In this document: piece after piece, positions 3,823-59,973 of the stretch | Layout: each line of letters opens with the position of its first letter | Numbering within the stretch: the first letter of the stretch is position 1 | Origin: Eledone cirrhosa | Lineage: Eukaryota | Reading direction: 5' to 3' | Assembly (NCBI GenBank): GCA_964016885.1 | Contig: OZ024743.1 | Span: forward strand, 143,530,001 to 143,594,000 | Length of the DNA: 64,000 nt | Position numbers and translations under genes: made by a program | The notes under the pieces: model-generated | What the model was told of the DNA's origin: nothing | Seen by the model: only the letters and a program-made list of their open reading frames with translations | Database searches by the model: none

Positions 3823-3973
3823 GCTAGGTACTTTTCCTGTAACTGCCTCACAAGGAAGAGGGCATCAGTGGTGCCTCTTCCTGGTACAAACCCAAATTGC
3901 ATCTCGTGTATTTTCACCCAGTCCCTAATCAACTGTGCTATAACTCTTTCTGTTACTTTCATGACCTGGTCCA
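3823..3973 (-). mobile_element. 151-bp RTE family B RT fragment fused to the 5' end of family A
   Basis: Matches 2762-2912 with about 2 substitutions. Confidence 0.85.
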
Positions 3974-6900
3974 TGCGAGCACTCCTCTTTGTTTCGTCCG
4001 CGGATGGCTAACATAACCCTATCTCCCCCCGCCCCCCACCACCCCCACCCTCCAAACGCAACCCAAAACTTCAGAGTTGGTACCATAAATGTAGGTACCC
4101 TAAAGGGTCGCGCTAACGAGGTTGTAGAAATGCTTGAACGTAAGGAGGTCGATGTTTGTTGTATTCAAGAGACCAGGTGGAGGGGTGGGTCTGCTAGATT
4201 CATTGAGGGTAAAAAACGATGTTATAAGCTTTTCTGGGTGGGAAACGACGATGGGCTGGGTGGAGTAGGAATCATGGTAGCAGAAAAGTGGGCAGATAAG
4301 ATAATAGACGTAAATAGAGTGAACGACAGAATAATTAAAATAAGACTTGTCCTCAATAGAACTACGGTGACAGTAATATCTGCGTACGCACCCCAATCCG
4401 GACTGCCCGGCACTATAAAAGACAGATTCTATGAGACACTGTTGCTAACTACCTCCCAAATATCTGACAGTGACTATATAATTATTGCAGGCGACCTAAA
4501 TGGTCACGTTGGACAACATTGTGACGGCTACGACGAAATCCATGGAGGCTATGGGTTTGGTACTAGAAATGAGGAAGGCTCCAGAATTCTGGAATACTGT
4601 GATGCAAATAACCTAACTATCTGTAACACTAACTTCAAAAAACGTGACAATCACCTGATTACCTATAGATCCGGGGAACACACAAGCCAGGTAGATTATA
4701 TCCTTACCAGAAGACGTGACAGAGTGTCTGTTGTAAACACTAAATCCCTCCCCCATGAAGAATGCACCTCCCAACATAGACTGATAATTAGCGACCTCAC
4801 AGTCAGGACGAGACGTACCCGACAGCAGAAGAGGACTATCCTCAGGAGGAAAATATGGAAACTAAAGGACCCCACAGCCAGAAATAAATTTCAAAGCATA
4901 TTACTTGATGCTTTCGACAGTAAGGAAGAGCATCTAGAATCGGACAATATAGAGGGACAGTGGAAATTTCTGAAAGCAAACCTGCTGTTGGCGACAGACG
5001 AAGTCTGTGGCTGGAGCAGGCCTGTAGGCAGGAGGAGAGTAACATGGTGGTGGAACAATAGGGTGGAGGGGTCAATTAAGGCCAAAAAGCAGGCTTGGAA
5101 AGTATGGCGGGATGGGGGAAGTAGAGTAGACTATCAAGTGGCCAGGAGGGAAGCTAGGAGAGAAGTGTACTTAGCAAGAAGGGAAGCTGAGGAAAGAAAG
5201 TTCAAGCATGTTCTACAACGCGATGACCAAAAACGTGAGGTGTTCAGGATTGCCAGGCAATGCGTCAAGGAAAACCGTGATATTGTCGGGGAGAAGTGTG
5301 TACTTAACGATGATGGCATACTTGCCATCACCGACACTGATAAGAAGGTAGCTTGGAAGTGTCACTATGAAAGGCTACTAAATGAGGAGAATAAATGGGA
5401 GAAAGACAGTCTCCCCCATATCGACCCGATAGAGGGACCAGCAGTGTTAGTCGAGGGGAGTATAATAAGTAAGGCAATCAAGGATATGAAGACTGGTAAG
5501 GCGGCTGGGCCTTCGGAAATAGTTGCTGAGATGCTGAAGGCATCTGGCACAGTGGGACACACCATGGTCACCCGCATAGTTAACCAAGTCGTACAGAATG
5601 GGGTTGTTCCGAAGGACTGGCATAGCAGCATCATCGTTAACTGTTATAAGGGTAAAGGAGACGCCCTAGATAGGAGTAACTATAGAGGCATTAAATTAAT
5701 CGACCAGGTCATGAAGGTCACGGAAAAAGTAATAGCGCAACTAATCAGAGAGAGAATTGATCTAGATGAAATGCAGTTCGGGTTTGTGTCAGGCAAAAGC
5801 ACCACAGACGCTCTTTTCATAGTACGACAACTACAGGAGAAGTACCTAGCTAAAGGTAAACCCCTCTACTTAGCTTTTGTCGACCTGGAGAAAGCCTTCG
5901 ACAGAGTCCCCCGCTCCATTATCTGGTGGGCTCTTAGAAAACTAGGCGTTGATGAATGGCTTGTGAGGGCTATACAAGCCATGTATAAAGAAACAGTCAG
6001 CAAGGTTAGAATTAACAACGAATATAGTGAAGAGTTTAGCGTAAAAGTTGGCGTCCATCAGGGCTCTGTTCTCAGCCCCCTACTATTTATTATTGCCCTT
6101 CAGGCTATAACAGAGGAGTTCAAGACAGGCTGCCCATGGGAACTCCTATACGCAGACGACCTGACACTCATAGCGGAATCAATGGCCGAGCTAGAGAAGA
6201 AATTCCAAACATGGAAGCACGGCCTAGAGTCAAAAGGACTTAAAATTAACCTGGCTAAGACCAAAGTTCTAGTTTGTAGGAAAGAAAACAAGGCGGCGGT
6301 CCCTTCTGGGAAATGGTCGTGCTCGGTATGTAGGAAAGGCGTAGGTAGAAACTCCATCTTATGTCCTAAATGCAAAGTATGGGTGCATAAAAGATGTAGT
6401 GGGATCACAGGTAAGCTAACTAAGAACATAGACTTTACATGTGGCCGGTGTTCTGGTGCAATAAGTAGCAGCAAGTGCCCACAAAATACTAGCTCTTTCA
6501 ATTGCGCAGAGGGTTCTATAGAAATAGTGGACAGCTTCCGTTACCTGGGCGATAAAATCAGCAGTGGGGGAGGGTGCTCTGAAAGTACTGTAGCTAGAGT
6601 CAGAACTGGTTGGAAAAAGTTCAGAGAGCTTATACCACTATTAGCTGCTAAAGGGTTCTCCCTAAAAATGAAAGGCAGGTTGTACGATGCCTGCATACGA
6701 ACAGCAATGTTGCATGGTAGTGAGACCTGGGCATTGTGTGCAGAGGATATACGCAGACTAGAGAGGAACGAAGCTTGCATGCTCCGCTGGATGTGTAACA
6801 GTAATATACGTGAACGGCAAAGCATAAACGAACTAAGGAAAAAATTAGAGATAAGAGGGATCAGATGTTTACTCGAGAGAAGGCTGCGTTGGTATGGACA

Positions 6901-7468
6901 CGTGATGCGCATGAAAGTCGATAGCTGTATTACAAAGTGCAGGGCAATAAAGATAGACGGTAGCCACGGAATAGGCAGACCTAGAAAAACATGGGATGAG
7001 CTGATAAACTCCGACCTCACACACTTACACCTCTCCAAGACAATGTCACTGGACCGTGACCTTTGGCGGTACTCAGTAACAGAGAAGACCCGCCTTGCCA
7101 GTAGGCATCTCTAACAAACTACACCCCGTCCCGCCACCACCCCCACCCCATCCACACCACCCCGTTCTATGTAAAGTTATGTTGGTGCCGCGCCATCCAG
7201 GCCGAAACAAATGAGATCGTGTAGGTGTCACGACAAAAAAACACACAGTCCACGCTGTAATGTGGCCGTGTAGGCAACACGGTAAAAACCTCCCAGACCC
7301 ACACTGTAAATGTGGTTGGTGTTAGGAAGGGCATCCAACTGTAGAAAACCTGCCAGACAGTCCTATGCGAGCAAGACAATCACTCTTGCCTCAAGTGGGA
7401 CTACCCCCGTCCAAACCCATGCAAGCGTGGAACACGGACGTTAAACGTTGATGATGATGATGATGATG
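3972..7468 (+). mobile_element. RTE family A, near full-length, potentially coding-competent
   Basis: Intact ORF, 3' UTR and (GAT)n tail; most of the 5' UTR is missing relative to the copy at 14131-18566. Confidence 0.92.
3989..7114 (+). CDS. RTE family A ORF: APE endonuclease + reverse transcriptase with inserted PHD finger
   Basis: Uninterrupted 1041 aa: GTINVG, IQETRW, AYAP, GDLN, DYIL, SQH (APE); [23 protein letters not shown] (RT); first ATG is in GATGGCTAAC (~4004). Confidence 0.93.
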
Positions 7469-7820
7469 ACATACATATACATACATATATATATATAGAT
7501 ATATTCATACATATATATAGATATATTCATACATATATATAGATATATACATACATATATATAGATATATACATACATATATATAGATATATACATACAT
7601 ATAGATATATACATACATATAGATATATACATACATATATATAGATATATACATACATATATATAGATATATACATACATATATATAGATATATACATAC
7701 ATATATATAGATATATACATACATATATATAGATATATACATACATATATATAGATATATACATACATATATATAGATATATACATACATATATATAGAT
7801 ATATACATACATATATATAT

Positions 7821-9756: not shown

Positions 9757-11125
9757 GTAAGTATGCATGTATACGTACATACATATATGTATACAGACGT
9801 ACAGTAGCATGCACATATATATATATATACACATATATACATACATATGCATACAGGTACACATACATATATGCACGTATCAGTTTAGCGGCGCTAACGT
9901 CGCTTTGTTCGTTTGTAAACAAACTGAACAGCCTGAATTTATGCCATACGGTGTTAAGGCAACCACGTCACCTTTTTGTTCAACACTGACACAGGAACGA
10001 TGTACTAGTTTCAAGCTTGTTAGCTATCATCAGCACCGTTTACCCATCTGCCAGATAGTTGAACGTTCGAAAGTATATACTTTCCTTATGAAAATTAACG
10101 GCTGAGCAGCCTAATTTGCATATTGAGTGAGTTAAATCGGTCAGGCATACCGAAAACGATAAATTAACGGCTGAGCAGCCTAATTTGCATATTGAGTGAG
10201 TTAAATCGGTCAGGCATACCGAAAACGATAAATTGCTGCTCAGCCGTTAATTTTCATAAGGAAAGTATATACTTTCGAACGTTCAACTATCTGGCAGATG
10301 GGTAAACGGTGCTGATGATAGCTAACAAGCTTGAAACTAGTACATCGTTCCTGTGTCAGTGTTGAACAAAAAGGTGACGTGGTTGCCTTAACACCGTATG
10401 GCATAAATTCAGGCTGTTCAGTTTGTTTACAAACGAACAAAGCGACGTTAGCGCCGCTAAACTGATACGTGCATATATGTATGTGTACCTGTATGCATAT
10501 GTATGTATATATGTATATATATATTTATATATATATGTGCATGCTACTGTACGTCTGTATACATATATGTATGTACGTATACATGCATACTTACATTTAA
10601 GTAAGTGCCATACTAAGAGTGAGAAATGAAATTTCGTTTTCATTTTGTTTCAATTTATCGTTTTCGGTATGCCTGACCGATTTAACTCACTCAATATGCA
10701 AATTAGGCTGCTCAGCCGTTAATTTTCATAAGGAAAGTATATACTTTCGAACGTTCAACTATCTGGCAGATGGGTAAACGGTGCTGATGATAGCTAACAA
10801 GCTTGAAACTAGTACATCGTTCCTGTGTCAGTGTTGAACAAAAAGGTGACGTGGTTGCCTTAACACCGTATGGCATAAATTCAGGCTGTTCAGTTTGTTT
10901 ACAAACGAACAAAGCGGCGTTAGCGCCGCTAAACTGATACGTGCATATATGTATGTGTACCTGTATGCATATGTATGTATATATGTATATATATATATAT
11001 ATATGTGCATGCTACTGTACGTCTGTATACATATATGTATGTACGTATACATGCATACTTACATTTAAGTAAGTGCCATACTAAGAGTGAGAAATGAAAT
11101 TTCGTTTTCATTTTGTTTCAATTTA
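9757..11125 (+). mobile_element. Hammerhead-containing 472-bp tandem repeat (retrozyme-like) with an inverted arm
   Basis: Direct units start at 10235 and 10707; inverted copy 9757-10234; one HHR per unit. Confidence 0.82.
10307..10347 (+). ncRNA. Type I minimal hammerhead ribozyme (copies 10779-10819 +, 9998-10038 -)
   Basis: cggtg CTGATGA t agct aaca agct t GAAA ctag TA catcg: stem I, core, stem II, palindromic stem III ACTAGT, GUA site. Confidence 0.85.
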
Positions 11126-11338
11126 TACATATATATATACATATATATATATATATACATATATACATATATATATATATATACATATATATATACATAT
11201 ATATATATATATACATATATATATACATATATATATATATACATATACATATATATACATATACATATATATATACATATATATATATATACATATATAC
11301 ATATATATATATATACATATATACATATATATATATAC

Positions 11339-14130: not shown

Positions 14131-17100
14131 ATCATCATCAACGTTTAACGTCCGTGTTCCACGCTTGCATGGGTTTGGACGGGGGTAGTCCCACTTGAGG
14201 CAAGAGTGATTGTCTTGCTCGCATAGGACTTTTTTTAGCGTTTTCTACAGTTGGATGCCCTTCCTAACACTAACCACATTTACAGTGTGGGTCTGGGAGG
14301 TTTTTACCGTGTTGCCTACACGGCCACATTACAGCGTGGACTGTGTGTTTTTTTGTCGTGACACCTACACGATCTCATTTGTTTCGGCCTCGATGGCGCG
14401 GCACCAACATAACTTTACATAGAACGGGGTGGTGTGGATCGGGTGGGGGTGGTGGTGGTGGGACGGGGTGTATTTTGTTAGAGATGCCTACTGGCTGGAG
14501 TAGGTTTTACTATATATTTAGGTAAGGCGGGTCTTCTCTGTTACTGAGTACCACCAAAGGTCTCGGTCCAGTGACATTGTCTTGGAGAGGTGTAAGTGTG
14601 TGATGTCGGAGTTTATCAGCTCGTCCCAGGTTTTTCTAGGTCTGCCTATTCCGTGACTACCGTCTATCTTTATTGCCCTGCACTTTGTTATACAGCTATC
14701 GACTTTCATGCGCATCACGTGTCCATACCAACGTAGCCTTCTCTCGAGTAAACAACATGTGATCCCTCTTATCTCTAATTTTTTCGTTAGTTCGTTTATG
14801 CTTTGCCGTTCACGTATATTACTGTTACACATCCAGCGGAGCATGCAAGCTTCGTTTCTCTCTAGTCTGCGTATATCCTCTGCACACAATGCCCAGGTCT
14901 CACTGCCATGCAGCATTGCTGTTCGTATGCAGGCATCGTACAACCTGCCTTTCATTTTTAGTGAGAACCCTTTAGCAGCTAATAGTGGTATAAGCTCTCT
15001 GAACTTTTCCAACCAGTTCTGACTCTAGCTACAGTACTTTCAGAGCACCCTCCCCCACTGCTGATTTTATCGCCCAGGTAACGGAAGCTGTCCACTATTT
15101 CTATAGAACCCTCTGCGCAATTGAAAGAGCTAGTAGTTTGTGGGCACTTGCTGCTACTTATTGCACCAGAGCACCGGCCACATGTAAAATCTATGTTCTT
15201 AGTTAGCTTACCTGTGATCCCACTACATCTTTTATGCACCCATACTTTGCATTTAGGACATAAAATGGAGTTTCTACCTACGCCTTTCCTACACACCGAG
15301 CACGACCATTTCCCAGAAGGGACCGCCGCCTTGTTTTCTTTCCTACAAACTAGTACTTTGGTCTTAGCCAGGTTAATTTTAAGTCCTTTTGACTCTAGGC
15401 CGTGCTTCCATGTTTGGAATTTCTTCTCTAGCTCGGCCATTGATTCCGCTATGAGTGTCAGGTCGTCTGCGTATAGGAGTTCCCATGGGCAGCCTGTCTT
15501 GAACTCCTCTGTTATAGCCTGAAGGGCAATAATAAATAGTAGTGGACTGAGAACAGAGCCCTGATGGACGCCAACTTTTACGCTAAACTCTTCACTATAT
15601 TCGTTGTTAATTCTAACCTTGCTGACTGTTTCTTTATACATGGCTTGTATAGCCCTCACAAGCCATTCGTCAACGCCTAGTTTTCTAAGAGCCCACCAGA
15701 TAATGGAGCGGGGGACTCTGTCGAAGGCTTTCTCCAAGTCGACAAAAGCTAAGTAGAGGGGTTTACCTTTAGCTAGGTACTTCTCCTGTAGTTGTCGTAC
15801 TATGAAAAGAGCGTCTGTGGTACTTTTGCCTGACACAAACCCGAACTGCATTTCATCTAGGTCAATTCTCTCTCTGATTAGTTGCGCTATTACTTTTTCC
15901 GTGACCTTCATGACCTGGTCGATTAATTTAATGCCTCTATAGTTACTCCTATCTAGGGCGTCTCCTTTACCCTTATAACAGTTAACGATGATGCTGCTAT
16001 GCCAGTCCTTCGGAACAACCCCATTCTGTACGACTTGGTTAACTATGCGGGTGACCATGGTGTGTCCCACCGTGCCAGATGCCTTCAGCATCTCAGCAAC
16101 TATTTCCGAAGGCCCAGCCGCCTTACCAGTCTTCATATCCTTGATTGCCTTACTTATTATACTCCCCTCGACTAACACTGCTGGTCCCTCTATTGGGTCG
16201 ATATGGGGGAGACTGCCTTTCTCCCAATTATTCTCCTCATTTAGTAGCCTTTCATAGTGACACTTCCAAGCTACCTTCTTATCAGCGTCGGTGATGGCAA
16301 GTGTGCCATCGTCGTTTAGTACACACTTCTCCCCGACAATATCACGGTTTTCCTTGACGCATTGCCTAGCAATCCTGAACACCTCACGTTTTTGGTCATC
16401 GCGTTGTAGAACATGCTTGAACTTTCTTTCCTCAGCTTCCCTTCTTGCTAAGTACACTTGTCTCCTAGCTTCCCTCCTGGCCACTTGATAGTCCTCTCTA
16501 CTTCCCCCATCCCGCCATACTTTCCAAGCCTGCTTTTTGGCCTTAATTGACCCCTCCACCTTACTGTTCCACCACCATGTTACTCTCCTCCTGCCTACAG
16601 GCCTGCTCCAGCCACAGACCTCGTCTGTCGCCAACAGCAGGTTTGCTTTCAGAAATTCCCACTCTCCCTCTATATTGTCCGACTCTAAATGTTCTTCCTT
16701 ACTGTCGAAAGCATCAAGTAATATGCTTTGAAATTTATTCCTGGCTGTGGGGTCCTTTAGCTTCCATATTTTCCTCCTGAGGATAGTCCTCTTCTGCTGT
16801 CGAGTACGTCTCGTCCTGACTATGAGGTCGCTAATTATCAGTCTATGTTGGGAGGTGCATTCTTCATGGGGGAGGGATTTAGTGTTAACAACAGACACTC
16901 TGTCACGTCTTCTGGTAAGGATATAATCTACCTGGCTTGTGTGTTCCCCGGATCTATAGGTGATCAGGTGATTGTCACGTTTTTTGAAGTTAGTGTTACA
17001 GATAGTTAGGTTATTTGCATCACAGAATTCCAGGATTCTGGCGCCTTCCTCATTTCTAGTACCAAACCCATAGCCTCCATGGATTTCGTCGTAGCCGTCA

Positions 17101-18566
17101 CAATGTTGTCCAACGTGACCATTTAGGTCGCCTGCGATAATTATATAGTCACTGTCGGATATTTGGGAGGTAGTTAGCATCAGTGTCTCATAGAATCTGT
17201 CTTTTATAGTGCCGGGCAGTCCGGATTGGGGTGCGTACGCAGATATTACTGTCACCGTAGTTCTATTGAGGACAAGTCGTATTTTAATTATTCTGTCGTT
17301 CACTCTATTTACGTCTATTATCTTATCTGTCCACTTTTCTGCTACCATGATTCCTACTCCACCCAGCCCATCGTCGTTTCCCACCCAGAAAAGCTTATAA
17401 CATCGTTTTTTACCCTCAATGAACCTAGCAGACCCACCCCTCCACCTGGTCTCTTGAATACAACAAACATCGACCTCCTTACGTTCAAGCATTTCTACAA
17501 CCTCGTTAGCGCGACCCTTTAGGGTGCCTACATTTATGGTACCAACTCTGAAGTTTTGGATTGCGTTTGGGGGTTGGGGGCGGTGAGGGGCGGGGGCGAT
17601 GGGGTTATGTTAGCCGTCCGCGGTCGAAACAATGAGGAGTGCTCGCATTCTCGTCCAAGAGGTGAATTTGTCTATCTTTGGCATTGTCGCTGAGCGTCCA
17701 GATTTTTCTCTCTCACCTCCACTCTCCAGGATTCCGCAGTCCATCCATCCATCATATATCGTATATCGAAAGGCAACCAGGCAAGCGATAGTATAGGCCT
17801 CTGGTTTCTGATTGGTCCGCGTAATAATACTGGTGATGCGTGGGGGCTCTGTTTTATGATTGGTCCACGTAATAGCAATGGTGGTGCGTGGGGGTGGGAG
17901 GGAGGGGTGTTGGGTAGCTAGCAAGAAGGTAATGATTGAGTGGGGTCCATGCATTTAACAAGCGATTAACAAAAATACAAAATTTGTTCTGTTAAATACG
18001 TCCAAAAACCTACGTATTTAGCAATTAATAGAAACAGAAAATGTAGTTTGTTTTAGCGATAGATTGGCTATTTGGACTTGATACGAAATATGGATTGTTT
18101 TGAAAATACGCTAGAATTAAGATTTGTGGAGGGAGAGGAGAGAGAGAGAGAGAGATGAAGTCTGTACATTACGTTTACATGAATATCGTGTGGACAGCAA
18201 GCAATGAAATGAAATTTGGCGAAGTGAATTCCTATCATATATTTATAGGGAGAGAGAGAGAGTGAGAGAGAGCGAGGGGAGGGGGCCACATGATGGCTGT
18301 GAGTGTTAGGCGTTTGACCGCCCCGTGCCTTCGAAGAAGGAAGAAGGAAAGGATTTTGTTTTTTTTTGTTTTGAAGATACGCTAGAATTAGGGATTGGGG
18401 TTTGAAAATACGTTAGGAATTAAGGTTTGAAAATAGCTAGCAAGAAGGTAATGATTGAGTGGGGTCCATGCATTTAACAAGCGATTAACAAAAATACAAA
18501 ATTTGTTCTGTTAAATACGTCCAAAAACCTACGTATTTAGCAATTAATAGAAACAGAAAATGTAGT
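14131..18566 (-). mobile_element. RTE family A, probably full-length with long 5' UTR; one frameshift near 15007
   Basis: ORFs 14979-17492 and 14518-15012 are near-identical to 3989-7114; the 5' boundary is inferred from the start of the microsatellite. Confidence 0.88.
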
Positions 18567-19734: not shown

Positions 19735-21647
19735 TATGACAGCGAACGGAGACATTGTTATGCTAGCAGGACACTTCAATGGTCATGTTGGACAGCTCCA
19801 GGATGGTTACACTGGAGTACATGGTGGGCACGGTTACGGCTCAAGAAGTGAAGAAGGAGTGAGACTTCTTGAATTTTGTGATGCGGGTACATTGACTCTT
19901 TGCAACACAAACTTCCAGAAACCTGCCAATCACCTAATAACCTACAAATCTGGCGAGCACATAAGCCAGATTGACATCTTACTAGTTAGGCAGCGGGACA
20001 GGCAGATAGCGTCTAATACCAAGGCATACCCTGGGGAAGAATGTACCCTACAGCATAGGTTAGTCGATATCTCAGTAAGCAAGAGATTGAATGAGACATA
20101 CAGGAAGGTATGGAGAAGGTAAAATACAAATTTAGGAAAAGCCCGTCAAAATGTATATGACGAAAAAGAAGACGATTTAGAGACGTATGACATAGATAAT
20201 AACTGGAATTTCTTACGTGACAACTTGCTGCAGGCTACTGATGAAACTTGTGGCTGGAGCAGAGCTCCAACCAGACAGAGAGTGAACTGGTGGTGGAACA
20301 GCACAGTAGATAAGGCCATTAGAGAGAAAAGACTAGCATGGAAGGCTTGGAAAAAGAGTGGGAGTCGGGAAGAATATACAGCCGCTAAGACAGAAGCTAG
20401 ACGTCAGGTGTACTTAGCACGCAAGGAGGCGGAGAGTAGGAGGTTTGCCAATGTTCTGCGACGGAAAGATCAGAGGCATGCGGTGTTCCACATTGCAAGG
20501 CAGTGTGTCAATGCAAATCAGGATGTTGTTGGAGATAAATGTGTCCGGGATGATGCCGGTGTACTTAGTGTCACGAATGATCAGAAAAAGGAGGCCTGGA
20601 AATGTCATTATGAGAGACTGATGAATGTGGAGAACGATTGGGGGAGAGAGAAATTACCCTTAGTGGATCTGACAGAGGGACCAGCTATTGAGATTGACGA
20701 ATATAGGGTCCAAGAGGCGATTAAGGAAATGAAAAATGGTAAGGCTGCTGGACCATCGGGAATACAAGTAGGAGTTCATCAAGGTTCAGTCCTCAGCCTG
20801 CTCTTGTTCATTATAGTCCTCCAAGCCATAACATAGGAGTTTAAGACTGGCTGTCCATGGGAACTTCTCTATGCTGACGATCTGGTTCTTATAGCAGAAT
20901 CAGTAGAGGAGCTAGAGAATAAATTCTGGCTATGGAAACAGCAGTTGGAAGCAAGAGGACTGAGAGTGAACCTAGCTAAGACAAAAGTGTCGATGAGTAG
21001 AACGAGGACAAAACTCTGATTCTGTCAGGGAAATGGCCATGTTCGATATGCAGAAAAGGAACGGGCATAAATTCTATAAAATGCACACAATGCAGATCCT
21101 GGGTACACAAGAGATGTAGCGGGATAGCAGGCAAACTAACAGGTAGGGAGAAATATGTATGCAGTAGATGTACAGGGAAATTAGAGAGTGGAAGTCGCAT
21201 TGATAGACACGTTTTTCAAAAGCAGGAGGGCGCTATAGAAGTGTTGGATAGCTTCCGGTACCTAGGAGATCAGATTAGCATGGGAGGAGGGTGTTCCGAG
21301 GCCATAGTATCTAGAATAAGGACGGGTTGGAAGAAGTTCAGGGAGCTGCTTCTTCTGCTGACAAAGGGTTTCTCCCTGCGTACGAAAGGCCAGTTGTATG
21401 ATGCCCGTGTGAGGAGCGCGATGCTACATGGTAGTGAGACATGGGTAGCAACTGCAGAGGATATGCGACGGCTGGAGAGAAATGACGCAAGCATGCTCCG
21501 TTGGATGTGCAGTGTAAATGTGCGTGAACGACCCAGCATGAATGTGTTGAGAGGGATAGAATGCAGTGTACAGGAGAGGCGACTGAGGTGGTATGGACAT
21601 GTGATGGGCATGGAGGATGACCGATGGGTGAAGAAGTGCCAGGAAAT
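19735..21647 (+). pseudogene. RTE family C, degenerate, with internal deletion near 20760
   Basis: APE/RT fragments; jumps from GPSGI to QVGVHQG; PHD-like CSIC..CTQC..WVHKRC..CSRC retained. Confidence 0.85.
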
Positions 21648-21869
21648 GTATATATATATACATATATATATGTATGTATGTATATATATATACATACATA
21701 TATATATGTATATATATATACATACATACATATATATATGTATATATACATACATACATATATATATGTATATATATATACATACATACATATATATATA
21801 TATGTATATATACATACATACATATATATATGTATATATACATACATACATACATATATATATGTATAT

Positions 21870-21902
<33 letters not shown>

Positions 21903-21941
21903 TGTATATATACATACATACATACATATATATATGTATAT

Positions 21942-21974
<33 letters not shown>

Positions 21975-22277
21975 TGTATATACATACATACATACATATA
22001 TATATATATGTATATATACATACATACATACATATATATATGTATATATATACATACATACATACATATATATATGTATATATATATACATACATACATA
22101 TATATATGTATATATATATACATACATACATATATATATGTATATATATATACATACATACATATATATATGTATATATATATACATACATACATATATA
22201 TATGTATATATATATACATACATACATATATATATGTATATATATACATACATACATACATATATGTATATATATAC

Positions 22278-22336
<59 letters not shown>

Positions 22337-22340
22337 CATA

Positions 22341-24689
22341 CGAAGCAGTCAAGGCCAAGAGACAGGCATGGAAAGAATGGAAGAACGGGGGGAGCAGGGT
22401 ACATTACATAGAGACCAAGAGGGAAGCTAGGCGACAAGTATACTTAGCTAGGAGGGAAGCAGAGGATAGAAAATTCGAGCATGTTTTACAACGTGAGGAC
22501 CAGAAACAGGAGGTATTCAAGATTGCGAGGCAGTGTGTCAGAGATAGTTGTGATGTCATTGGAGAGAAGTGTATCCGGAATGATAAAGGTGAGCTTGCCC
22601 TCACAAGTGCTGAGAAGAAAGATGCATGGAAGAGTCATTATGATAGATTACTAAATGAGGAGAATGCATGGGAAGAAGAGACCCTACCCCACGTAGACCC
22701 TATAGAGGGACCAGCAGTACAAGTCAGCGGCAGCGTAGTAAGTAAGGCAATCAGAGATATGAAGATAGGGAAGGCAACCGGTCCATCGGGTATAGCTGCC
22801 GAGATGCTGAAGGCATCTGGGTCTGTAGGTCACACTATAACCACACGTATCGTTAACCAGGTAATACTAGAGGGGGCCATACCAAAAGATTGGTGCAGTA
22901 GCATCATTGTCAACTGCTACAAAGGTAAAGGCGATGCACTAGATAGAGGAAACTATAGAGGTATAAAGTTGATGGACCAGGTCATGAAAGTAACAGAAAG
23001 AGTTATAGCACAGCTGATTAGGGACCGGGTGAATATAGACGAGATGCAATTTGGGTTTGTTCCAGGGAAAGGCACCACTGATGCGCTCTTCCTTGTGAGG
23101 CAATTACAGGAAAAGTACCTAGCTAAAAGTAAGCCACTCTACTTGGCATTTGTCGACCTTGAGAAAGCCTTTGACAGAGTTCCACGTGCAGTAATCTGGT
23201 GGGCTCTTAGAAAACTAGGAGTAGATGAATGGCTTGTGAAAGCGGTACAAGCCATGTATAGGGGAGCAGTCAGCAAAGTTAGGATTGGCAATGAGTATAG
23301 CGAGGAATTTAGCGTACAGGTTGGGGTCCACCAGGGCTCTGTTCTTAGCCCTCTCCTGTTCATCATAGTCCTGCAGGCAATAACGGAGGAGTTTAAGACC
23401 GGATGCCCATGGGAACTCCTGTATGCTGATGACCTCGCACTCATAGCTGAATCTATGGTAGAACTAGAGAATAAATTCCAAACCTGGAAGCAGGGACTAG
23501 AGAGAAAGGGCCTCAAAGTCAACATGACAAAGACTAAGGTCCTTATAAGTAGACGAGAAAACAGAACCCAGATCCCCTCAGGGAAATGGCCTTGCTCAGT
23601 ATGTAGGAAAGGTGTAGGTAGGAACTCCATTCTTTGCCCCAAATGCAAACAATGGGTACACAAGAGATGTAGCGGGATCTCAGGAAGCTTAATTAAGAAT
23701 GTAGGATTCACATGCAGCAGCTGTGCTGAAACAGCAAGCAAACAGCCACAGGAAACAAGTACCACCAATCTCTGGGAGGGCCCTGTAGAAACAGTAGACA
23801 GCTTCTGCTACCTAGGTGACCGAATTAGCAACGGAGGTGGGTGCTCAGAAAGTACAATAACTAGGGTAAGAACGGGATGGAAGAAGTTTAGGGAACTACT
23901 ACCACTGCTAGCTGCAAAAGGCTTCTCCCTCAGAATGAAAGGCAGACTGTATGATGCGTGTATCCGAACAGCGATGTTGCATGGTAGTGAGACCTGGGCG
24001 CTGAAGGTGGAAGACTTACGTAGATTAGAGAGAAACGAAGCCTGCATGCTCCGATGGATGTGTAACAGTAATATACGTGAACGACAAAGCATAAATGAAT
24101 TGAGAGAGAGACTGAGCATAAGAGGAATCAAATGCTGCGTGCAGGAGAGGCGGTTACGCTGGTATGGACATGTGATGCGTATGAAGGATGACAGCTGCAT
24201 AAAAAGGTGCAGAGCACTAGAAGTTGATGGAAACCGCGGAGTGGGGAGACACAAGATGACTTGGGATGAGGTGATAAAAGCCGACCTTACCCAACTACAC
24301 CTCTCAAAGTCAATGACACACGACCGTGACTTCTGGCGTCACGCAGTAATACAGGGTACCCGACCTCCCATGGGTACATGCTGAAGCATATAAACAATAT
24401 GCCCCCCCCCCCCCCACCGCAAGGTGGCCGTGGAGGTGCCACGGCAAAAAAGCACCCAGCCCACACTGTAAAGTGGACGTGTAGGCGCCACGAAAAAGCA
24501 CCCAGCACTCACTGTAAATGAGGTTGGTGTTAGGAAGGGCATCCAGCTGTAGAAATCAAGCCAGATCAGTTCCTGTATGAGCAAGGCATGGTCAGCCGAC
24601 CAGACACTGCCCACAACAGGACAACCCGTCTAACCCATGCTAGCGTGGAAGAACGGACGTAAAACGGTGATGATGATGATGATGATGAT
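22341..24689 (+). mobile_element. RTE family B, 5'-truncated, RT open to 24384
   Basis: RT motifs, PHD insert, 3' UTR and (GAT)n tail. Confidence 0.92.
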
Positions 24690-43516: not shown

Positions 43517-43585
<69 letters not shown>

Positions 43586-43591
<6 letters not shown>

Positions 43592-43933
43592 TGAAATCGA
43601 AAATGCAACTGAAGTCTTATTTTTTTAAAAAATATATATATTTATTTGGTTCCTTTACCGGTTTCGCAGTTCTTCTGCTTTTCAAAAGGTGAGTTGAGAT
43701 GGAGGGTCTGTGGTTTTTCTCACATCAGATGTGAGAAAAACCACAGACCCTCCATCTCAATTCACCTTTTGAAAAGCAGAAGAACTGCGAAACCGGTAAA
43801 GGAACCAAATAAATATATATATTTAAAAAAAAAATAAGACTTCAGTTGCATTTTCGATTTCATCTCTTTTTCTTTATACTTCCACTCGTGTAGGACACCT
43901 CGGTTATTTTTCATTTTGTAAAAAAAACCTCAC

Positions 43934-44019: not shown

Positions 44020-44179
44020 ATTTATATATATTTATTAAAATAACAGATTAAAGTTTAAGCAAAGAATCGCTGCTTTGGATTTTAGTCTTCAATTTTATTA
44101 TTATTACTATATATATATATATATATATATATAAGTTTAATCGATACATGTAAAATATGTATCGATTATGTTTCTCAAC

Positions 44180-44227
<48 letters not shown>

Positions 44228-44582
44228 GTTGAGAAACATAATCGATACATATTTTACATGTATCGATTAAACTTATATATATATATATATATATAAACCC
44301 AAATGCTGGATATTTTACCAACCTTCCTGGGGTCCGGGTTTAATTTTTCAATCATATTTTACTTGTTTGACCCGAATTACTTGGTCGTTTCTATGGCTGT
44401 GCGGATAATGGTTTAACCATAATCTCAGTGTGTTTGGCCTTTTAACTTATGTTGTTGCTCTAGTTCATTAGGTTCTATGGAGCGCTTGCCACACACCTCG
44501 GAAGTTGTTTTTCGCTAATTTCCAATAGCCGAAATACGATTCTCGCTAATTTATATTTGTATATATATATATATATATATAT

Positions 44583-45158
44583 GTAGATAAATCTACCAAG
44601 AGTTTACGGTAGTGTCCAATCCGTATGAAGGACTCAATGTATTCCGGATATCATGGAAAGAAGAGATGTAATGAAAATCCACTTTCGGTGAAAGATAAAC
44701 GGTATACAGAGTCAAGATAAAATATTAAAGAAATAATGAATAAACAATTCCTTATATTAAACAAAAAAAGTTCATTATTTAACGATCGTTTCTAGGGTAT
44801 ATATGTGTTATAATTGGTATGCATATTCAACAGATCTATGTACAAAATTATACAAAATTATACAAATTATCAAGATTAAATATACATACCTAACACATAT
44901 ATACGCCGTCTTCAGAAATAATTTATTTCTGAAGACATATATACGCCGTCTTCAGAAATAATTTATTTCTGAAGACGGCGTATATATGTGTTATGTATGT
45001 ATATTTAATCTTGATAATTTGTATAATTTTGTATAATTTTGTACATAGATCTGTTGAATATGCATACCAATTATAACACATATATACCCTAGAAACGATC
45101 GTTAAATAATGAACTTTTTTTGTTTAATATAAGGAATTGTTTATTCATTATTTCTTTA

Positions 45159-45167
<9 letters not shown>
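44583..45167 (+). repeat. Foldback element with long-stem-II HHR
   Basis: Arms 44717-44921 and 44962-45167; double apex; HHR at 44963-45109. Confidence 0.78.
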
Positions 45168-45218
<51 letters not shown>

Positions 45219-45221
<3 letters not shown>

Positions 45222-45534
45222 AACAGAAATAACAACACAATCGGTACAGTATATGGAAGGTATATATTAGGTTAACGCTTGATATAGCAGGAAGAGGGTC
45301 TTAACGTTTCGGACGCTAGTCCTTCATCAGAAGAAAGAATGAGAAATAAAATAGATTAAGGGGACGGGCGGGAAGGAATTAGAAAAAATGTCTTTAGATA
45401 AAAATAATAGGTCCATTCATGTTGACATCTCTTGCAAAACTGTTGGTGCTGTGTTTTGTGTATGATGGCGCGCGTCTACCTGAAATGGAAAAAAACCGTT
45501 TTGTAAAAAGAGCTATACTTGAGCACGCGCGCGC

Positions 45535-45572
<38 letters not shown>

Positions 45573-47403
45573 GCGTGCGCGCGTGTGTGTGTGTTATTAT
45601 AGGTCCGTAGGAAGCTAAGAAGAGATATGTGTGTATATGTGAGTAAAAGAGTGTGTGTGCATGTAAGTACGAAGCTATGAGCAAAGAGAAAGCGATAGGA
45701 ATCTAGTGGTGTGATAATGGACGGGGTATTAGAGAAATTGGGGAGGTAAGTTGAGTCCAAGAGGGGAATAGGACCCAAGACGGTGAATCAGACTTTGTTC
45801 AGTCCTGGTGCGCGAGGCCTGTGATCCATGATGTAAAAGGACACCCAGGACTGAAACATGTAAGGAAGAATGACCAGGAGAACAGAAATAACGAGCGACA
45901 GGAGTATCCAAACCGAGTCGTTTGTCCCTCAAATGTTCGGCAAAATGGTCCGCCATACGGCGTCCCGTTTGTCCGATATATAAAGACCCGCAAAGGGAAC
46001 ACCGGAGGGCATAAAAAACGTGGGTGGATGTGCAGGTGAAGGAATGGCGGATACAGAAAGATCCGTTAGGGCCTGTAAGAGTGGTGAGGGTGGAAATAAA
46101 GGGACAAATGTTGCAGCGGGAACGGGAACAAGGATGAGAGCCGGGTGGAGTCGTGGAAGAGGACGAAAAAGAACTGCGAACCAGGAGGTCGCGGAGGTTG
46201 CGGGCGCGCTTAAAAGCAGTAATGGATGGGTTTGGAAAAAAGCGAGAAGTGACGGGGTCAGAAGAGAGGATACGGAAGGAACGGAGGATATGTCGCCGGA
46301 GTGGTAGGGTGATGGGGTGGTAGGTGAGAGGGAAAGGAAAACGGGTGTTGGGAGGGTGGGGTTGAGGTGAGAGGGCTGTGGTGCGGTCTGTTTCACGGGC
46401 GCGGGTGAGAGCAGCTTGGATCAAGGTGGGTAGGATATCCACGCTGGATGAAGCAGGAAGCCATGCGAAGGGAATGGGTTTCGAAATCGTCGTCCTGGTT
46501 ACAGAGTCGATGAAGACGGAGGAATTGAGAATAGGGTATGGAGTGTTTGGTGTGGGTTGGATGGGAGGAGGTAAAGTCGAGGTAAGATTGGGAGTCTGTT
46601 GGTTTAATGAAGATGGAAGTAGAGAGGGTGTGGTGAGAGTGATTAATAGATAGAGATATCTAGAAAAGCGACAGAAGAATCGGAGACAGAGGCGGTGAAA
46701 TTGAGAGCAGGATGGAAAGATTGGACAAAAGAAAGAAAACAGTCGAACTGTTCTCGTGATAGAGAGGTGGCGCCGATACAGTCGTCGATATAACGACCGT
46801 ATAGCTCAGGAGTCTGTCCAGCGTACTGGGAGAAGATCTGGGCTTCGACGTAGGCAACAAACAAGTTGGCATAGTTTGGACCCATTCTGGTTCCTATCGC
46901 TACCCCAGAGAACTGCTGGTAAAATTCACCCGAAAATGAAAATCCATTAAGGGTGAGAACAAGCTCAGCCAGACGGAGAAGAGTGGTAGTGCTGGGGTAA
47001 GGAGTATGGCGTAAGTCTAAAGAATGCTGGAGAGCGCGGAGGCCGTCATCATGAGGGATGACGGTATAGAGAGAAGTAATGTCCATGGTAAAGAGAAGGC
47101 GGGAGGGACCAGGATGGAAGGAGAAAGAGTTGAAGAGTCTAAGGGCATGATTTGTATCGTGAATGTGGGAGGGGAGATTGCCGACCAACAGGGCGAGGAT
47201 GGTGTCTAAATATTCAGAAATTATCTCGGTGGGGCAGTTGCACGCAGAAACGATAGGACGGCCAGGATTATTTTGTTTGTGCATTTTGGGGAGGAAGTAG
47301 ATGGTGGGTGTGCTAGGGGTGCGTACAATAAGGTTGGTGGCTGTGGGGGTAGGTGAGAGGAGGAGATGAGCTCGTGGGATGGTGGAGGACACGAGTTGTT
47401 GGT
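45219..47403 (-). mobile_element. Penelope-like element P3 (Neptune-like: RT, Cys linker, GIY-YIG), 5'-truncated
   Basis: LPKMHK..PGRPIVS, MDITSLYT, GTRMGPNYANLF, RYIDD; CSRSRCNIC; FYALRCSLC..YIGQTGR. Confidence 0.9.
45299..45334 (-). ncRNA. Minimal hammerhead ribozyme in the P3 3' UTR
   Basis: tctt CTGATGA a ggac tagc gtcc GAAA cg TT aaga. Confidence 0.85.
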
Positions 47404-48191
47404 AGATATATATATATATGTGTGTGTGTGTAATTAGAAGACCCTCCTCCCCACACAGGTCCCTAATTACCATGGTTTTGTACTACTAATTCATAATTAT
47501 GTATGTGTATTTTGGTGTTGCCTTTTTATATGCTGATTCCTCCGCGTGTTCTATTATCAACTATAACAATTTTAAGAGTTTTTCTTCTTTATTTTTCAAA
47601 TATTTGCTACATATCATAAACCGGTTGTTGATAGGTTTCAAGCTATTTATTGGTCAAGTTTCCCAAACAATTCGTAAACACAGGATACGTTTTATATTGG
47701 AAGCAATGAACTTTCGTGAAACGGAAAATTTTACGTTTCTAAATATATTCAACATTTTCTAATTTTCTATGACATTGTTAAAGGAGACGGACTTCCTGAT
47801 GAATTGATCTATAAAAATTGTAAATATGATTATATACATATCTCTCTGGAATTTTACAAATGTTTTTCTTGTGTTGTCTTATGTTGAATTCACAAGTCAA
47901 CGTTCAATTCACAAATCTTACAAACGTCATGTGCACTATCTTCATATTTTTTTTAATCATTATCAAATACTATCTGGCCCGTCCGACTGGCGTCCAGCAA
48001 GGTATACCTGCCCCCACCACTCCACTGCAAAGATACCACACACCCTCCCGTGTCACATTGTCCTTCCGACTCCCTCTCTCTGAATAACTAACACTTTAAT
48101 TGTATCTCTCTCTGTCTAACGGCCTATCTCTCTCTTTCCCCCTCCCTCTGTTTTTCTGCCCCTCTCTGTAGATGTGTGTGTGTAGTTTTCC

Positions 48192-55593: not shown

Positions 55594-55650
<57 letters not shown>

Positions 55651-55654
<4 letters not shown>

Positions 55655-56310
55655 TAAATCATGTCCTTAGAATTATTAGATAAAATATATACTATTTCCT
55701 CTTCCAGTTAGCATAATTAACCATATAAAAAATCAATTAGACCAAGCTATAAGAAGAAAGGCTCTTATGAAGAAATCTCCGACAAATAACCGAAAGTGGC
55801 CTCTTCGCGGTGGCCCAATAGAGTATTTATCCAACATTTCGACAGCATGTAGAAACTGACTAAATATACCATCAACCATACACAATTAGGTGTAAAATTA
55901 AACTTAGAAGAAATGTGTACATACCATAATTACGGTGTGTACACATTTCTTCTAAGTTTAATTTTACACCTAATTGTGTATGGTTGATGGTATATTTAGT
56001 CAGTTTCTACATGCTGTCGAAATGTTGGATAAATACTCTATTGGGCCACCGCGAAGAGGCCACTTTCGGTTATTTGTCGGAGATTTCTTCATAAGAGCCT
56101 TTCTTCTTATAGCTTGGTCTAATTGATTTTTTATATGGTTAATTATGCTAATTGGAAGAGGAAATAGTATATATTTTATCTAATAATTCTAAGGACATGA
56201 TTTATGATATATTGCTCTGATTATTTAATTTATTAATTCTTCATAGAGCCTAAAAGTGACCGGTTGCAGCATATATATCTATAACTTTATGTATATGTAA
56301 ACCTTTATAT
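55651..56310. repeat. Foldback with ~280-bp near-perfect arms
   Basis: Apex ~55930. Confidence 0.85.
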
Positions 56311-57800: not shown

Positions 57801-57867
<67 letters not shown>

Positions 57868-58052
57868 TATAGAAATGGCTTCTACAGGACTAGAACTGTT
57901 TCATTCGGGAGAAATCATCAGCGCTTCCTGGTGATTTCTACCGAATGAAACAGTTCTAGTCCTGTAGAAGCCATTTCTATATTAAATATTTGTACTCTGC
58001 TATGTATTGAGTACCTTACTTACTGTGGTTACTCCCGATTGAACCCGGGAAA

Positions 58053-58058
<6 letters not shown>
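57868..58058 (+). repeat. Foldback element with HHR (family also at 39833-39950)
   Basis: gcttc CTG(G/A)TGA t ttc tacc gaa t GAAA cag ttctagtc ctg TA gaagc at 57923-57971. Confidence 0.78.
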
Positions 58059-58094
<36 letters not shown>

Positions 58095-58100
<6 letters not shown>

Positions 58101-58312
58101 AGAAATGTAAGCTATCGCCGTATTTTGACTAAAAAAATTAAAGAAATTATTTAGCCTGATAGTGGGGTTAAGAACCCTCCATTTCTCCGAGGGTTCTTAA
58201 CCCCACTATCAGGCTAAATAATTTCTTTAATTTCTTTAGTCAAAATACGGCGATAGCTTACATTTCTAATAATTTCAAACCAACTCGCTGTTTCGAAAAT
58301 ATCCTTACTTGA
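58095..58312. repeat. Foldback with ~85-bp arms, no HHR seen
   Basis: Apex ~58184. Confidence 0.75.
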
Positions 58313-58328
58313 TATATATATATATATA

Positions 58329-59558
58329 TTTTGGATTTAATGCTCTGAAATAGCGATATATATGTGAAGACAAACATAGAATATTCGAAAATATTCTGTA
58401 TGTTTATAATAAACATTTTGAAGACCCAATCGCTATAGAATAGAATACGTCACGTATTACAATTTGAGATTCTCGATAAAAGCAAGGGAAGTAACCTACG
58501 CGTTTCATTCTTATTAGAAATCATCAGGATTACATATCCAATGCTTTTATCGAGAATGACACAGCTAGAGACTTATAGAATACTTAGCTGTGTACAGGAA
58601 CTGGTTTGAAAGAGCGGTAGCCGGTCCGGCAGAAATTAGAATTTGGATTTAATGCTCTGAAATAGCGATATATATGTGAAGACAAACATAGAATATTCGA
58701 AAATATTCTGTATGTTTATAATAAACATTTTGAAGACCCAATCGCTATAGAATAGAATACGTCACGTATGTAATCCTGATGATTTCTAATAAGAATGAAA
58801 CGCGTAGGTTACTTCCCTTGCTTTTATCGAGAATCTCAAATTGTAATACGTGACGTATTCTATTCTATAGCGATTGGGTCTTCAAAATGTTTATTATAAA
58901 CATACAGAATATTTTCGAATATTCTATGTTTGTCTTCACATATATATCGCTATTTCAGAGCATTAAATCCAAATTCTAATTTCTGCCGGACCGGCTACCG
59001 CTCTTTCAAACCAGTTCCTGTACACAGCTAAGTATTCTATAAGTCTCTAGCTGTGTCATTCTCGATAAAAGCATTGGATATGTAATCCTGATGATTTCTA
59101 ATAAGAATGAAACGCGTAGGTTACTTCCCTTGCTTTTATCGAGAATCTCAAATTCTAATACGTGACGTATTCTATTCTATAGCGATTGGGTCTTCAAAAT
59201 GTTTATTATAAACATACAGAATATTTTCGAATATTCTATGTTTGTCTTCACATATATATCGCTATTTCAGAGCATTAAATCCAAATTCTAATTTCTGCCG
59301 GACCGGCTACCGCTCTTTCAAACCAGTTCCTGTACACAGCTAAGTATTCTATAAGTCTCTAGCTGTGTCATTCTCGATAAAAGCATTGGATATGTAATCC
59401 TGATGATTTCTAATAAGAATGAAACGCGTAGGTTACTTCCCTTGCTTTTATCGAGAATCTCAAATTGTAATACGTGACGTATTCTATTCTATAACGATTG
59501 GGTCTTCAAAATGTTTATTATATACATACAGAATATTTTCGAATATTCTATGTTTGTC

Positions 59559-59562
<4 letters not shown>
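58329..59562 (+). mobile_element. Hammerhead-containing 312-bp tandem repeat (retrozyme-like) with an inverted arm
   Basis: HHRs start at 58770, 59082 and 59394 (+) and span 58491-58533 (-). Confidence 0.88.
58770..58812 (+). ncRNA. Type I minimal hammerhead ribozyme
   Basis: gtaatc CTGATGA t ttct aata agaa t GAAA cgcg TA ggttac. Confidence 0.9.
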
Positions 59563-59631
<69 letters not shown>

Positions 59632-59973
59632 GATATTAATAAATGGAAACTATATTTATAAAACCATATCTATTTCATCATACATATTTCAGGGATACCA
59701 AATTAAATTATGGTATGCCTTAATCAGACAAAATACAATATATAACAGTTTTACAAATAAGCTTAGACGTACGCTTTGGCTTCCAAAAATAATGGTCGCA
59801 TTTTAAAAGGGTACGTCAAAGCTTATTTGTAAAACTGTTATATATTGTATTTTGTCTGATGAAGGCATACCATAATTTAATTTGGTATCCCTGAAATATC
59901 TTCTCCGTTTTTTCTTTGCTTGTTTCCTTAAAGTTGACCATCATTCCGTTGGTATACCTCAATTACGCAATTT

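Follow-up and report, generated by a model that had tools for sequence, protein, structure and literature searches.

Head-to-head arrays of a putative molluscan retrozyme suggest two-ended, rolling-circle priming on one monomeric template

We analyzed a 64,000-nucleotide stretch of the Eledone cirrhosa genome assembly (contig OZ024743.1, positions 143,530,001 to 143,594,000; hereafter, the window) in which a non-coding 312-bp repeat with a hammerhead ribozyme motif lies in two opposed arms between (TA)n tracts. The question raised by this locus is how such a unit comes to be inserted in this form. In our preferred reading, to which we assign a probability of about 0.72, a single circular monomer is reverse-transcribed by a rolling-circle route from two fixed sites, each primed by one end of a break in (TA)n, with an enzyme borrowed from a Penelope-like element.

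The element at 58330-59562 comprises 1.41 inverted and 2.55 direct 312-bp units with a (TA)n tract on either side, in agreement with an initial annotation of this DNA that had counted about 1.4 and 2.5. We number the unit from the base directly after the predicted cleavage site (58807, unit position 1). Its parts are as follows:

58312..58329, no strand: left (TA)n target tract
58330..58769, minus strand: left arm, 1.41 units (440 nt), reading from unit 40 round to 167 on the following turn and identical to the monomer throughout (0 mismatches); the long end is the outer (3') one
58330..58364, minus strand: 35-nt tail (unit 133-167), present at the left end only and missing from the right end
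58767..58769, no strand: head-to-head junction, a 3-nt microhomology where the arms overlap
58767..59562, plus strand: right arm, 2.55 units (796 nt), from unit 273 through two turns to 132, 3 mismatches; its outer (3') end is the short end
58807..59118, plus strand: single monomer between cleavage sites, the predicted 312-nt circular RNA
59563..59630, no strand: right (TA)n target tract

By testable features, we classify the element from its sequence as a metazoan non-LTR retrozyme of a mollusc. Retrozymes of this kind have been described from coral, mussel and axolotl (Rtz331 and Rtz353), together with their circular RNAs and a proposal for their mobilization by Penelope-like elements (PMC7229834). 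Like the retrozymes described there, the element is built of tandem low-GC units (34% here; the published range is 150-450 bp) with one type I hammerhead each and no ORF. The longest ATG-started ORF on the 312-nt circle has 34 aa, in keeping with the non-coding, (TA)n-flanked unit of the initial annotation, and an endless ORF around the circle is ruled out by 3-9 stops per turn. The arrays of its family (family A) extend to (TA)n without an LTR-flanked internal region. As PMC7229834 presents them, the published retrozymes have demonstrated cleavage and circles and a proposed insertion route, whereas for family A cleavage and circles are predicted. What family A adds is fixed two-site ends, head-to-head arms and one haplotype per insertion; the word “inverted” is absent from the main text of PMC7229834. 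Our literature search, thin on subscription journals, returned no description of a cephalopod retrozyme and none of head-to-head retrozyme arrays whose arms share a haplotype and pair one short with one long end. Retrozymes as a class have thus been published, along with their circular RNAs and the Penelope proposal; what is new is the insertion anatomy.

Four ribozyme positions lie in the window, and the core motif is present at all of them:

58469..58557, minus strand: the inverted arm's complete hammerhead domain; core 58527, predicted cleavage after 58497
58767..58834, plus strand: first plus-strand hammerhead, without the 5' strand of the stem I extension; core 58776, predicted cleavage after 58806
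59058..59146, plus strand: complete type I hammerhead with 16-bp stem I extension and palindromic helix III; core 59088, predicted cleavage after 59118
59370..59458, plus strand: second complete hammerhead domain; core 59400, predicted cleavage after 59430

The initial annotation saw an intact type I hammerhead in each unit. This holds for the core motif; the first plus-strand copy lacks the 5' strand of the extension because the right arm begins at unit position 273. Helix II has a U.U mismatch at its base that had been overlooked. The 16-bp stem I extension is real, and the hammerhead domain folds at -36.5 kcal/mol (z -5.8), a value reached by 0 of 200 shuffles. Folding the circular monomer, as proposed with the annotation, gave z -5.0. 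A search against Rfam gave no match at the gathering threshold and, below it, only Hammerhead_HH9 (20.6 bits, E 0.29). The ribozyme call therefore rests on motif, fold and covariation. Helix III consists of one pair and a palindromic tetraloop, as in the dimer-acting HHR_Amex1 (1 bp plus palindromic tetraloop), and the U.U at the base of helix II has a counterpart in HHR_Amex2 (both as described in PMC7229834). The U.U in helix II and the 1-bp helix III are predicted to make a weak ribozyme. The single-ribozyme active fold, at -24.9 against a minimum of -33.7, costs ~9 kcal/mol. A strand-swapped dimer reaches -69.3 kcal/mol versus -49.8 for two active monomers and -67.4 for two monomer minima, and these computed energies support the preference for dimeric cleavage that the palindromic stem III had suggested at first. 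Among Xenopus dimers, one of nine was cleaved in vitro, according to the available text of bioRxiv 10.64898/2026.07.22.740005.

The family is young and dispersed, as first proposed from the single locus. The genome, of 3.0 Gb, includes molluscan hemocyanin genes whose clusters have seven domains each, a number typical of octopods and Nautilus. Of 499 candidates from a genome search with the unit, 39 were scored and yielded 262 matches, and the full-length ones among those listed are 98-100% identical to the unit; a tight ribozyme pattern has 1,762 exact genome matches and a wider superfamily motif 19,082 occurrences, with 0 in the control for each. We distinguish subfamilies A312 (the window element), A310, B (314-320 nt) and C (321 nt), and a further type at locus L060. 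Families A and B are collinear and 61% identical overall; identity in the ribozyme is 56%, and a ribozyme-swap origin of family A is unsupported. In the ribozymes of B and C, the core is U3-A8, helix II has G-C at its base, helix III is 4 bp long and the site is GUC; in that of family A, the core is C3-G8 and the site GUA. U3-A8 is a known variant of the hammerhead core (PMC4209133, in the portion available). In an alignment whose 11 rows represent about three independent lineages (essentially the three subfamilies) and not 11 independent events, 98.5% of cells are paired versus 36-48% for slid controls, and 12 of 42 pairs across the ribozyme and hairpins show two-sided changes, C3-G8 versus U3-A8 included. 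One hairpin has a UUCG tetraloop in A and GCAA in B and C. These patterns argue for selection on RNA structure. Of the hairpin series in the initial annotation, two hairpins are kept in the sister families, and GCCGGACCGGC, TAGCGAT/ATCGCTA and ACACAGCTA are not conserved as such. Unit 228-256 may hold an antisense relic of a ribozyme, with 22 of 29 nt matching (E 0.12-5).

Conservation peaks not at the ribozyme but in a neighboring stretch that contains both insertion-end sites:

58877..59004, plus strand: the superfamily's best-conserved domain (unit 71-198), a candidate reverse-transcriptase binding/initiation domain
58940..58947, plus strand: (AT)4 tract, the short-end site, within this domain
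near 58974, plus strand: the long-end site, within this domain

The domain holds an invariant GGTC/GACC helix and, crossing it, a near-invariant AGAGC/GCTCT helix, together with two covarying hairpins and the (AT)4 tract; its invariant pairs are in themselves no evidence of pairing.

We mapped the insertions at 78 family A loci, namely the 38 best-scoring (including the window) and 40 from the first contig, most of them chosen by their order along it, with three picked as long arrays and one as the neighbor of L048; L022 was left out as a duplicate of L037. The arms are head to head at 59 loci and tail to tail at none, 18 loci are single-armed and 1 is complex. The inverted part, treated as incidental in the initial annotation, is thus regularly present, and no other feature is as informative. 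In 56 of the 59 two-arm loci, one outer end falls at unit ~130-141 and the other at ~158-174, with no short-short and no long-long pair (P 1e-17 versus independent choice). The three exceptions are an alignment overrun (short plus long on inspection), an assembly gap and one locus cut short. A (TA) tract adjoins 127 of 138 3' ends, and family B follows the same pairing in 5 of 8 two-arm loci, the other 3 having an atypical end. The short-end site, (AU)4 in the RNA, is complementary to the (TA)n target; the long-end site is without evident complementarity. Between the outer ends, arms are of non-integer unit length, run head to tail for up to 22 units without an intervening ORF, and meet at a short microhomology or with a few added bases; in 38 of 59 loci, each of the two arms is longer than one unit. 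At L126, L131, L141, L166 and L171, clusters have built up by repeated nesting, with family members sitting in each other's (TA) tracts and in those of other Penelope-type insertions.

One way to obtain an inverted arm is fold-back or self-priming, in which one cDNA is copied back on itself, as proposed for rotifer Penelope on an antisense template (PMC3846280, as available to us in part). Such copying would give one haplotype in both arms, as we observe below, and many short fold-backs of other families in the window do look palindromic. We nevertheless consider it very unlikely, because neither arm limits the other and the inner break points are unrelated: the short arm is longer in 27 and the long arm in 29 of 56 loci (rho 0.14), with an excess of >0.5 unit in 23 and 25 of them, respectively, and the inner positions lie within 1 nt of each other in only 2 of 55. 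Mirrored variants are few.

The ends point to the enzymes of Penelope-like elements. EN+ members of this group (Neptune, Naiad, Hydra) often have a 30-40-nt tail at one end only and an inverted 5'-truncated copy, and they target (TA)n (PMC8557442, PMC3846280, in the portions available). Family A shares a tail of this type, which is the offset between its short and long ends, as well as the inverted truncated arm and the (TA)n targets, so that the Penelope machinery invoked in the initial annotation gains genomic support; it differs in having no ORF and in that both arms are multimeric. The tail of EN+ elements is called optional in the accessible descriptions, whereas 56 of the 59 two-arm loci of family A carry it on one arm and lack it on the other. 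Penelope elements are already known to have the tail and the inversion; what is new here is that the two are strictly paired, and on a substrate that is multimeric and non-coding. A comparable geometry arises in L1 twin priming, where both target ends prime cDNA on one RNA and leave an inversion joined by microhomology; there the position of the second site varies and each arm represents another part of the RNA, whereas family A has two fixed sites and its arms are repeated copies of one sequence. An enzymatic parallel is the PAc enzyme of the anole Poseidon element, a predicted dimer that cuts and extends both strands and has two internal start sites bounding the tail (PMC11167929, as far as its available text goes). 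Its start sites are described there as non-homologous, unlike the short site of family A with its complementarity to the target. The non-autonomous Chlamys elements, MRC1 among them, are Penelope relatives with multicopy head-to-tail insertions, but they are algal and, unlike family A, resemble their autonomous partners at the 3' end; for N-terminal-endonuclease elements, no canonical hammerheads are reported (both from the available part of PMC8557442).

What template the two ends copy can be read from sequence variants, which tend to be fixed across all units of both arms of a locus. Consensus sequences of the two arms differ by 0.32% within loci versus 1.09% for shuffled partners (0/5000; 36 loci), with 6 of the 7 discordant calls in this comparison coming from L048, where a neighboring insertion was paired as its arm. 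L048 was left out of the sporadic-variant and haplotype counts, and L050 out of the sporadic-variant count. At 7,488 sites present in at least two copies in both arms, we find 1 arm-fixed difference, versus ~32 expected for two sister units (0.0077 per site between loci), an expectation drawn from present-day heterogeneity that may overstate that of the source arrays. Across 38 loci there are 18 haplotypes, each locus-wide; the cleavage site is crossed 320 times, in 318 cases seamlessly. One haplotype across both arms implies that each insertion passed through a single-unit bottleneck; taken with the multi-unit arms and the seamless crossings, a covalent monomeric circle is the simplest explanation. 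A monomer-sized, probably circular template, as implied by the rolling circle of the initial annotation, thereby gains genomic support. Template jumping on a linear monomer is disfavored by the seamless junctions.

Our main rival explanation retains the twin priming and takes as template an uncleaved linear multimeric transcript of a homogeneous source array, with circles as by-products or absent. The anole PAc enzyme uses unprocessed RNA, its ribozyme is dispensable and ribozyme mutants still insert (PMC11167929, in the part available), and seamless junctions would be equally expected. However, each of the 18 haplotypes would have to become fixed across whole arrays without a single-unit bottleneck, and sister families have kept covarying ribozymes. 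Such a template also predicts ordered variants common to arms and loci. Among 174 types of sporadic variant, 159 are single and 2 recur across arms (0.3 expected, P 0.04), and 1 of 1,225 locus pairs shares at least two (50 of thousands of loci compared). The two cross-arm recurrences, together with 13 recurrences within an arm (0.7 expected; 8 in adjacent units), could come from a source array. On balance, we regard a linear template as unlikely.

The same-arm recurrences also bear on the route favored in the accessible part of bioRxiv 10.64898/2026.07.22.740005, tandem growth by unequal crossover. In this case, insertions would begin as non-autonomous Penelope pieces of about one unit and become multimeric later by unequal exchange, like a minisatellite. 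The 13 recurrences and the recurring variant pairs in the 22-unit arm of L050 are what it predicts, and they indicate that local duplication or conversion added units in some arrays, so that arm length is not all primary. As a general account we find it quite improbable: a seed of more than one unit would be required on each arm separately, most variant types are single, and the arms are non-integer, with unrelated inner ends and with both exceeding one unit in most two-arm loci at 98-100% identity.

Two further observations concern the proposed circle. Inner ends fall at unit 1-8 in 10 of 139 cases versus 3.6 expected (P 0.003), a pattern noticed before testing; the densest 8-nt window begins at position 1, with a scan-wide P of 0.37. 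The excess would fit in vivo cleavage, weakly and post hoc. We compared contigs of four sequencing runs with the element; no RNA run is listed as containing it, a listing that carries no information about expression. Run X4, of unspecified kind and with another organism label, contains one 342-nt contig with the whole unit plus 30 nt, a hint at most. With 31-letter words, presumably the word size of the assembly, a closed 312-nt cycle would give 342 nt; a collapsed DNA tandem would look alike, and contigs cannot tell strand, ends or molecule type. In run X1, depth is close to 2e5 and there are variant contigs by the hundred as well as additional inversion joints, a picture expected for genomic DNA. 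Over 58250-59650, run X6 has 15 listed differences that are absent from X1 (13 T>C and 1 A>G among them), and all 8 of those found in several contigs are of the T>C / A>G type; the pattern resembles A-to-I editing of double-stranded transcripts, in a run of unspecified kind without matched DNA.

Autonomous Penelope-like elements co-exist with the retrozyme family in the host genome. We count 10,596 GIY-YIG candidates, and find ORFs of 636-1096 aa with a reverse transcriptase, a CX4CxxC linker and, at the C-terminus, a GIY-YIG domain, including young Neptune-type ORFs. One ORF-bearing Neptune-type locus (L095) is head to head, has a U.U hammerhead and has arms that part 127 nt after it, a geometry close to that of family A. 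The superfamily member at L060:2438-2871, whose hammerhead has C3-G8, U.U, a longer helix III and a GUU site, also pairs a short end with a long one; the (TA) tract in which it is inserted lies behind a Neptune-type element.

The initial annotation had itself raised the possibility that the unit is nothing more than a pLTR belonging to some full-length Penelope-like element, in which case our loci would be truncated copies. Retrozymes have been interpreted as non-autonomous Penelope-like elements from co-occurrence and pLTR homology (bioRxiv 10.64898/2026.07.22.740005, a study with a vertebrate focus whose available text includes no mollusc and no analysis of tails or inverted arms). For family A, where we found no parent pLTR, the evidence is instead the insertion footprint. 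The ends of the unit do behave like those of a pLTR, and its core matches the family D hammerhead, described below, at 26 of 28 nt. Nevertheless, up to 22 units follow head to tail with no ORF between them, and 0 of 43 loci scanned for ORFs, 15 single-ribozyme loci included, have a sense-linked Penelope ORF, so the unit is not merely a pLTR; at L135 and L148, a (TA) tract separates the array from Penelope-like ORFs that point towards it. In 52 loci (30 best GIY-YIG, 20 long-ORF, 2 family D), we found no autonomous element with the same initiation domain, and the superfamily matches in two of them (L060 and L089) are separate insertions in (TA)n. We therefore hold the pLTR explanation to be highly implausible.

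Family D (window 57866-58055; L094, L096, L099, L141, L171, L180, L181) forms abundant short fold-backs in (TA)n; its hammerhead has U.U, a 4-bp helix III and GUA, and its short and long ends lie ~67 nt apart. We did not accept it as the parent element, as the ORF link at L181 is broken by other insertions and the end geometry differs. That ORF (L181:4282-5964, minus strand) encodes 561 aa with reverse-transcriptase and GIY-YIG-like parts, is 21% identical to Neptune-type proteins (E 0.04) and possibly belongs to the Hydra clade. The window also contains a truncated Penelope-like element at 45220-47390 (minus strand), with a reverse-transcriptase fragment at 46646-47482, a GIY-YIG-like tail end and a hammerhead at 45330, and at 43581-43873 a fold-back from the 3' end of a young Neptune-type family (L089, L090, L094) in which our scan detected no canonical hammerhead.

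We can now restate the preferred reading as a series of steps. The arrays would be transcribed, and neighboring hammerheads would swap strands to form a 6-bp helix III, whereupon 312-nt monomers would be cut out and ligated into circles. An EN+ Penelope-like endonuclease would cut both strands of a (TA)n tract. On one RNA molecule, each of the two DNA 3' ends would then prime reverse transcription at its own fixed internal site, the first at the (AU)4 tract (unit ~130-141) and the second ~30 nt downstream (~158-174); the observed pair of outer ends would be the footprint of this step. Each cDNA would then circle a variable distance, often more than one turn, before the two are joined at their ends into head-to-head arms, as the arm lengths and junctions record. 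Some units would later be duplicated or converted locally, as the variants show in part.

A bolder version, which we offer tentatively and at somewhat less than even odds, is that a dimer of the Penelope-type enzyme binds a single RNA circle together with the two ends of one cut (TA)n tract, and that it begins a cDNA at each of two programmed sites, such that tail and inversion are a single event and the one-short/one-long rule is strict. Unit 71-198 would then be a compact binding and priming module, similar to a telomerase RNA, that stayed fixed while the adjacent ribozyme varied between dimer-only (C3-G8, GUA) and stable-helix-III (U3-A8, GUC) forms.

The family bears on how animal retrozymes re-enter the genome and on why Penelope-like elements leave tails and inversions. 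It supplies thousands of near-identical natural products with fixed ends, a defined 312-nt substrate and young candidate enzymes in the same genome. With these, target-primed reverse transcription of the two-ended, rolling-circle kind can be put to a direct test in the in vitro Penelope assay that already exists. Work on RNA-templated insertion, and on natural expression of circular RNA, might also draw on a small circular template able to insert multimers at (TA)n.

Several other repeats in the window deserve mention. A second retrozyme-like hammerhead family, head to head in (TA)n with U.U and a palindromic helix III, occurs at 9800-11126 and at L101, with periods of 472 bp and ~510, respectively. 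Near-perfect fold-backs adjoin (TA)n at 44112-44295, 44717-45167, 55647-56212, 58095-58273 and 59684-59899; they are probably minimal twin-primed Penelope ends, and they account for spurious Rfam microRNA matches at the E-value threshold, which we rejected as genes. Long LINE ORFs with a PHD finger after the reverse-transcriptase domain lie at 3965-7111, 14982-17609 and 21001-24381, the last broken by a microsatellite.
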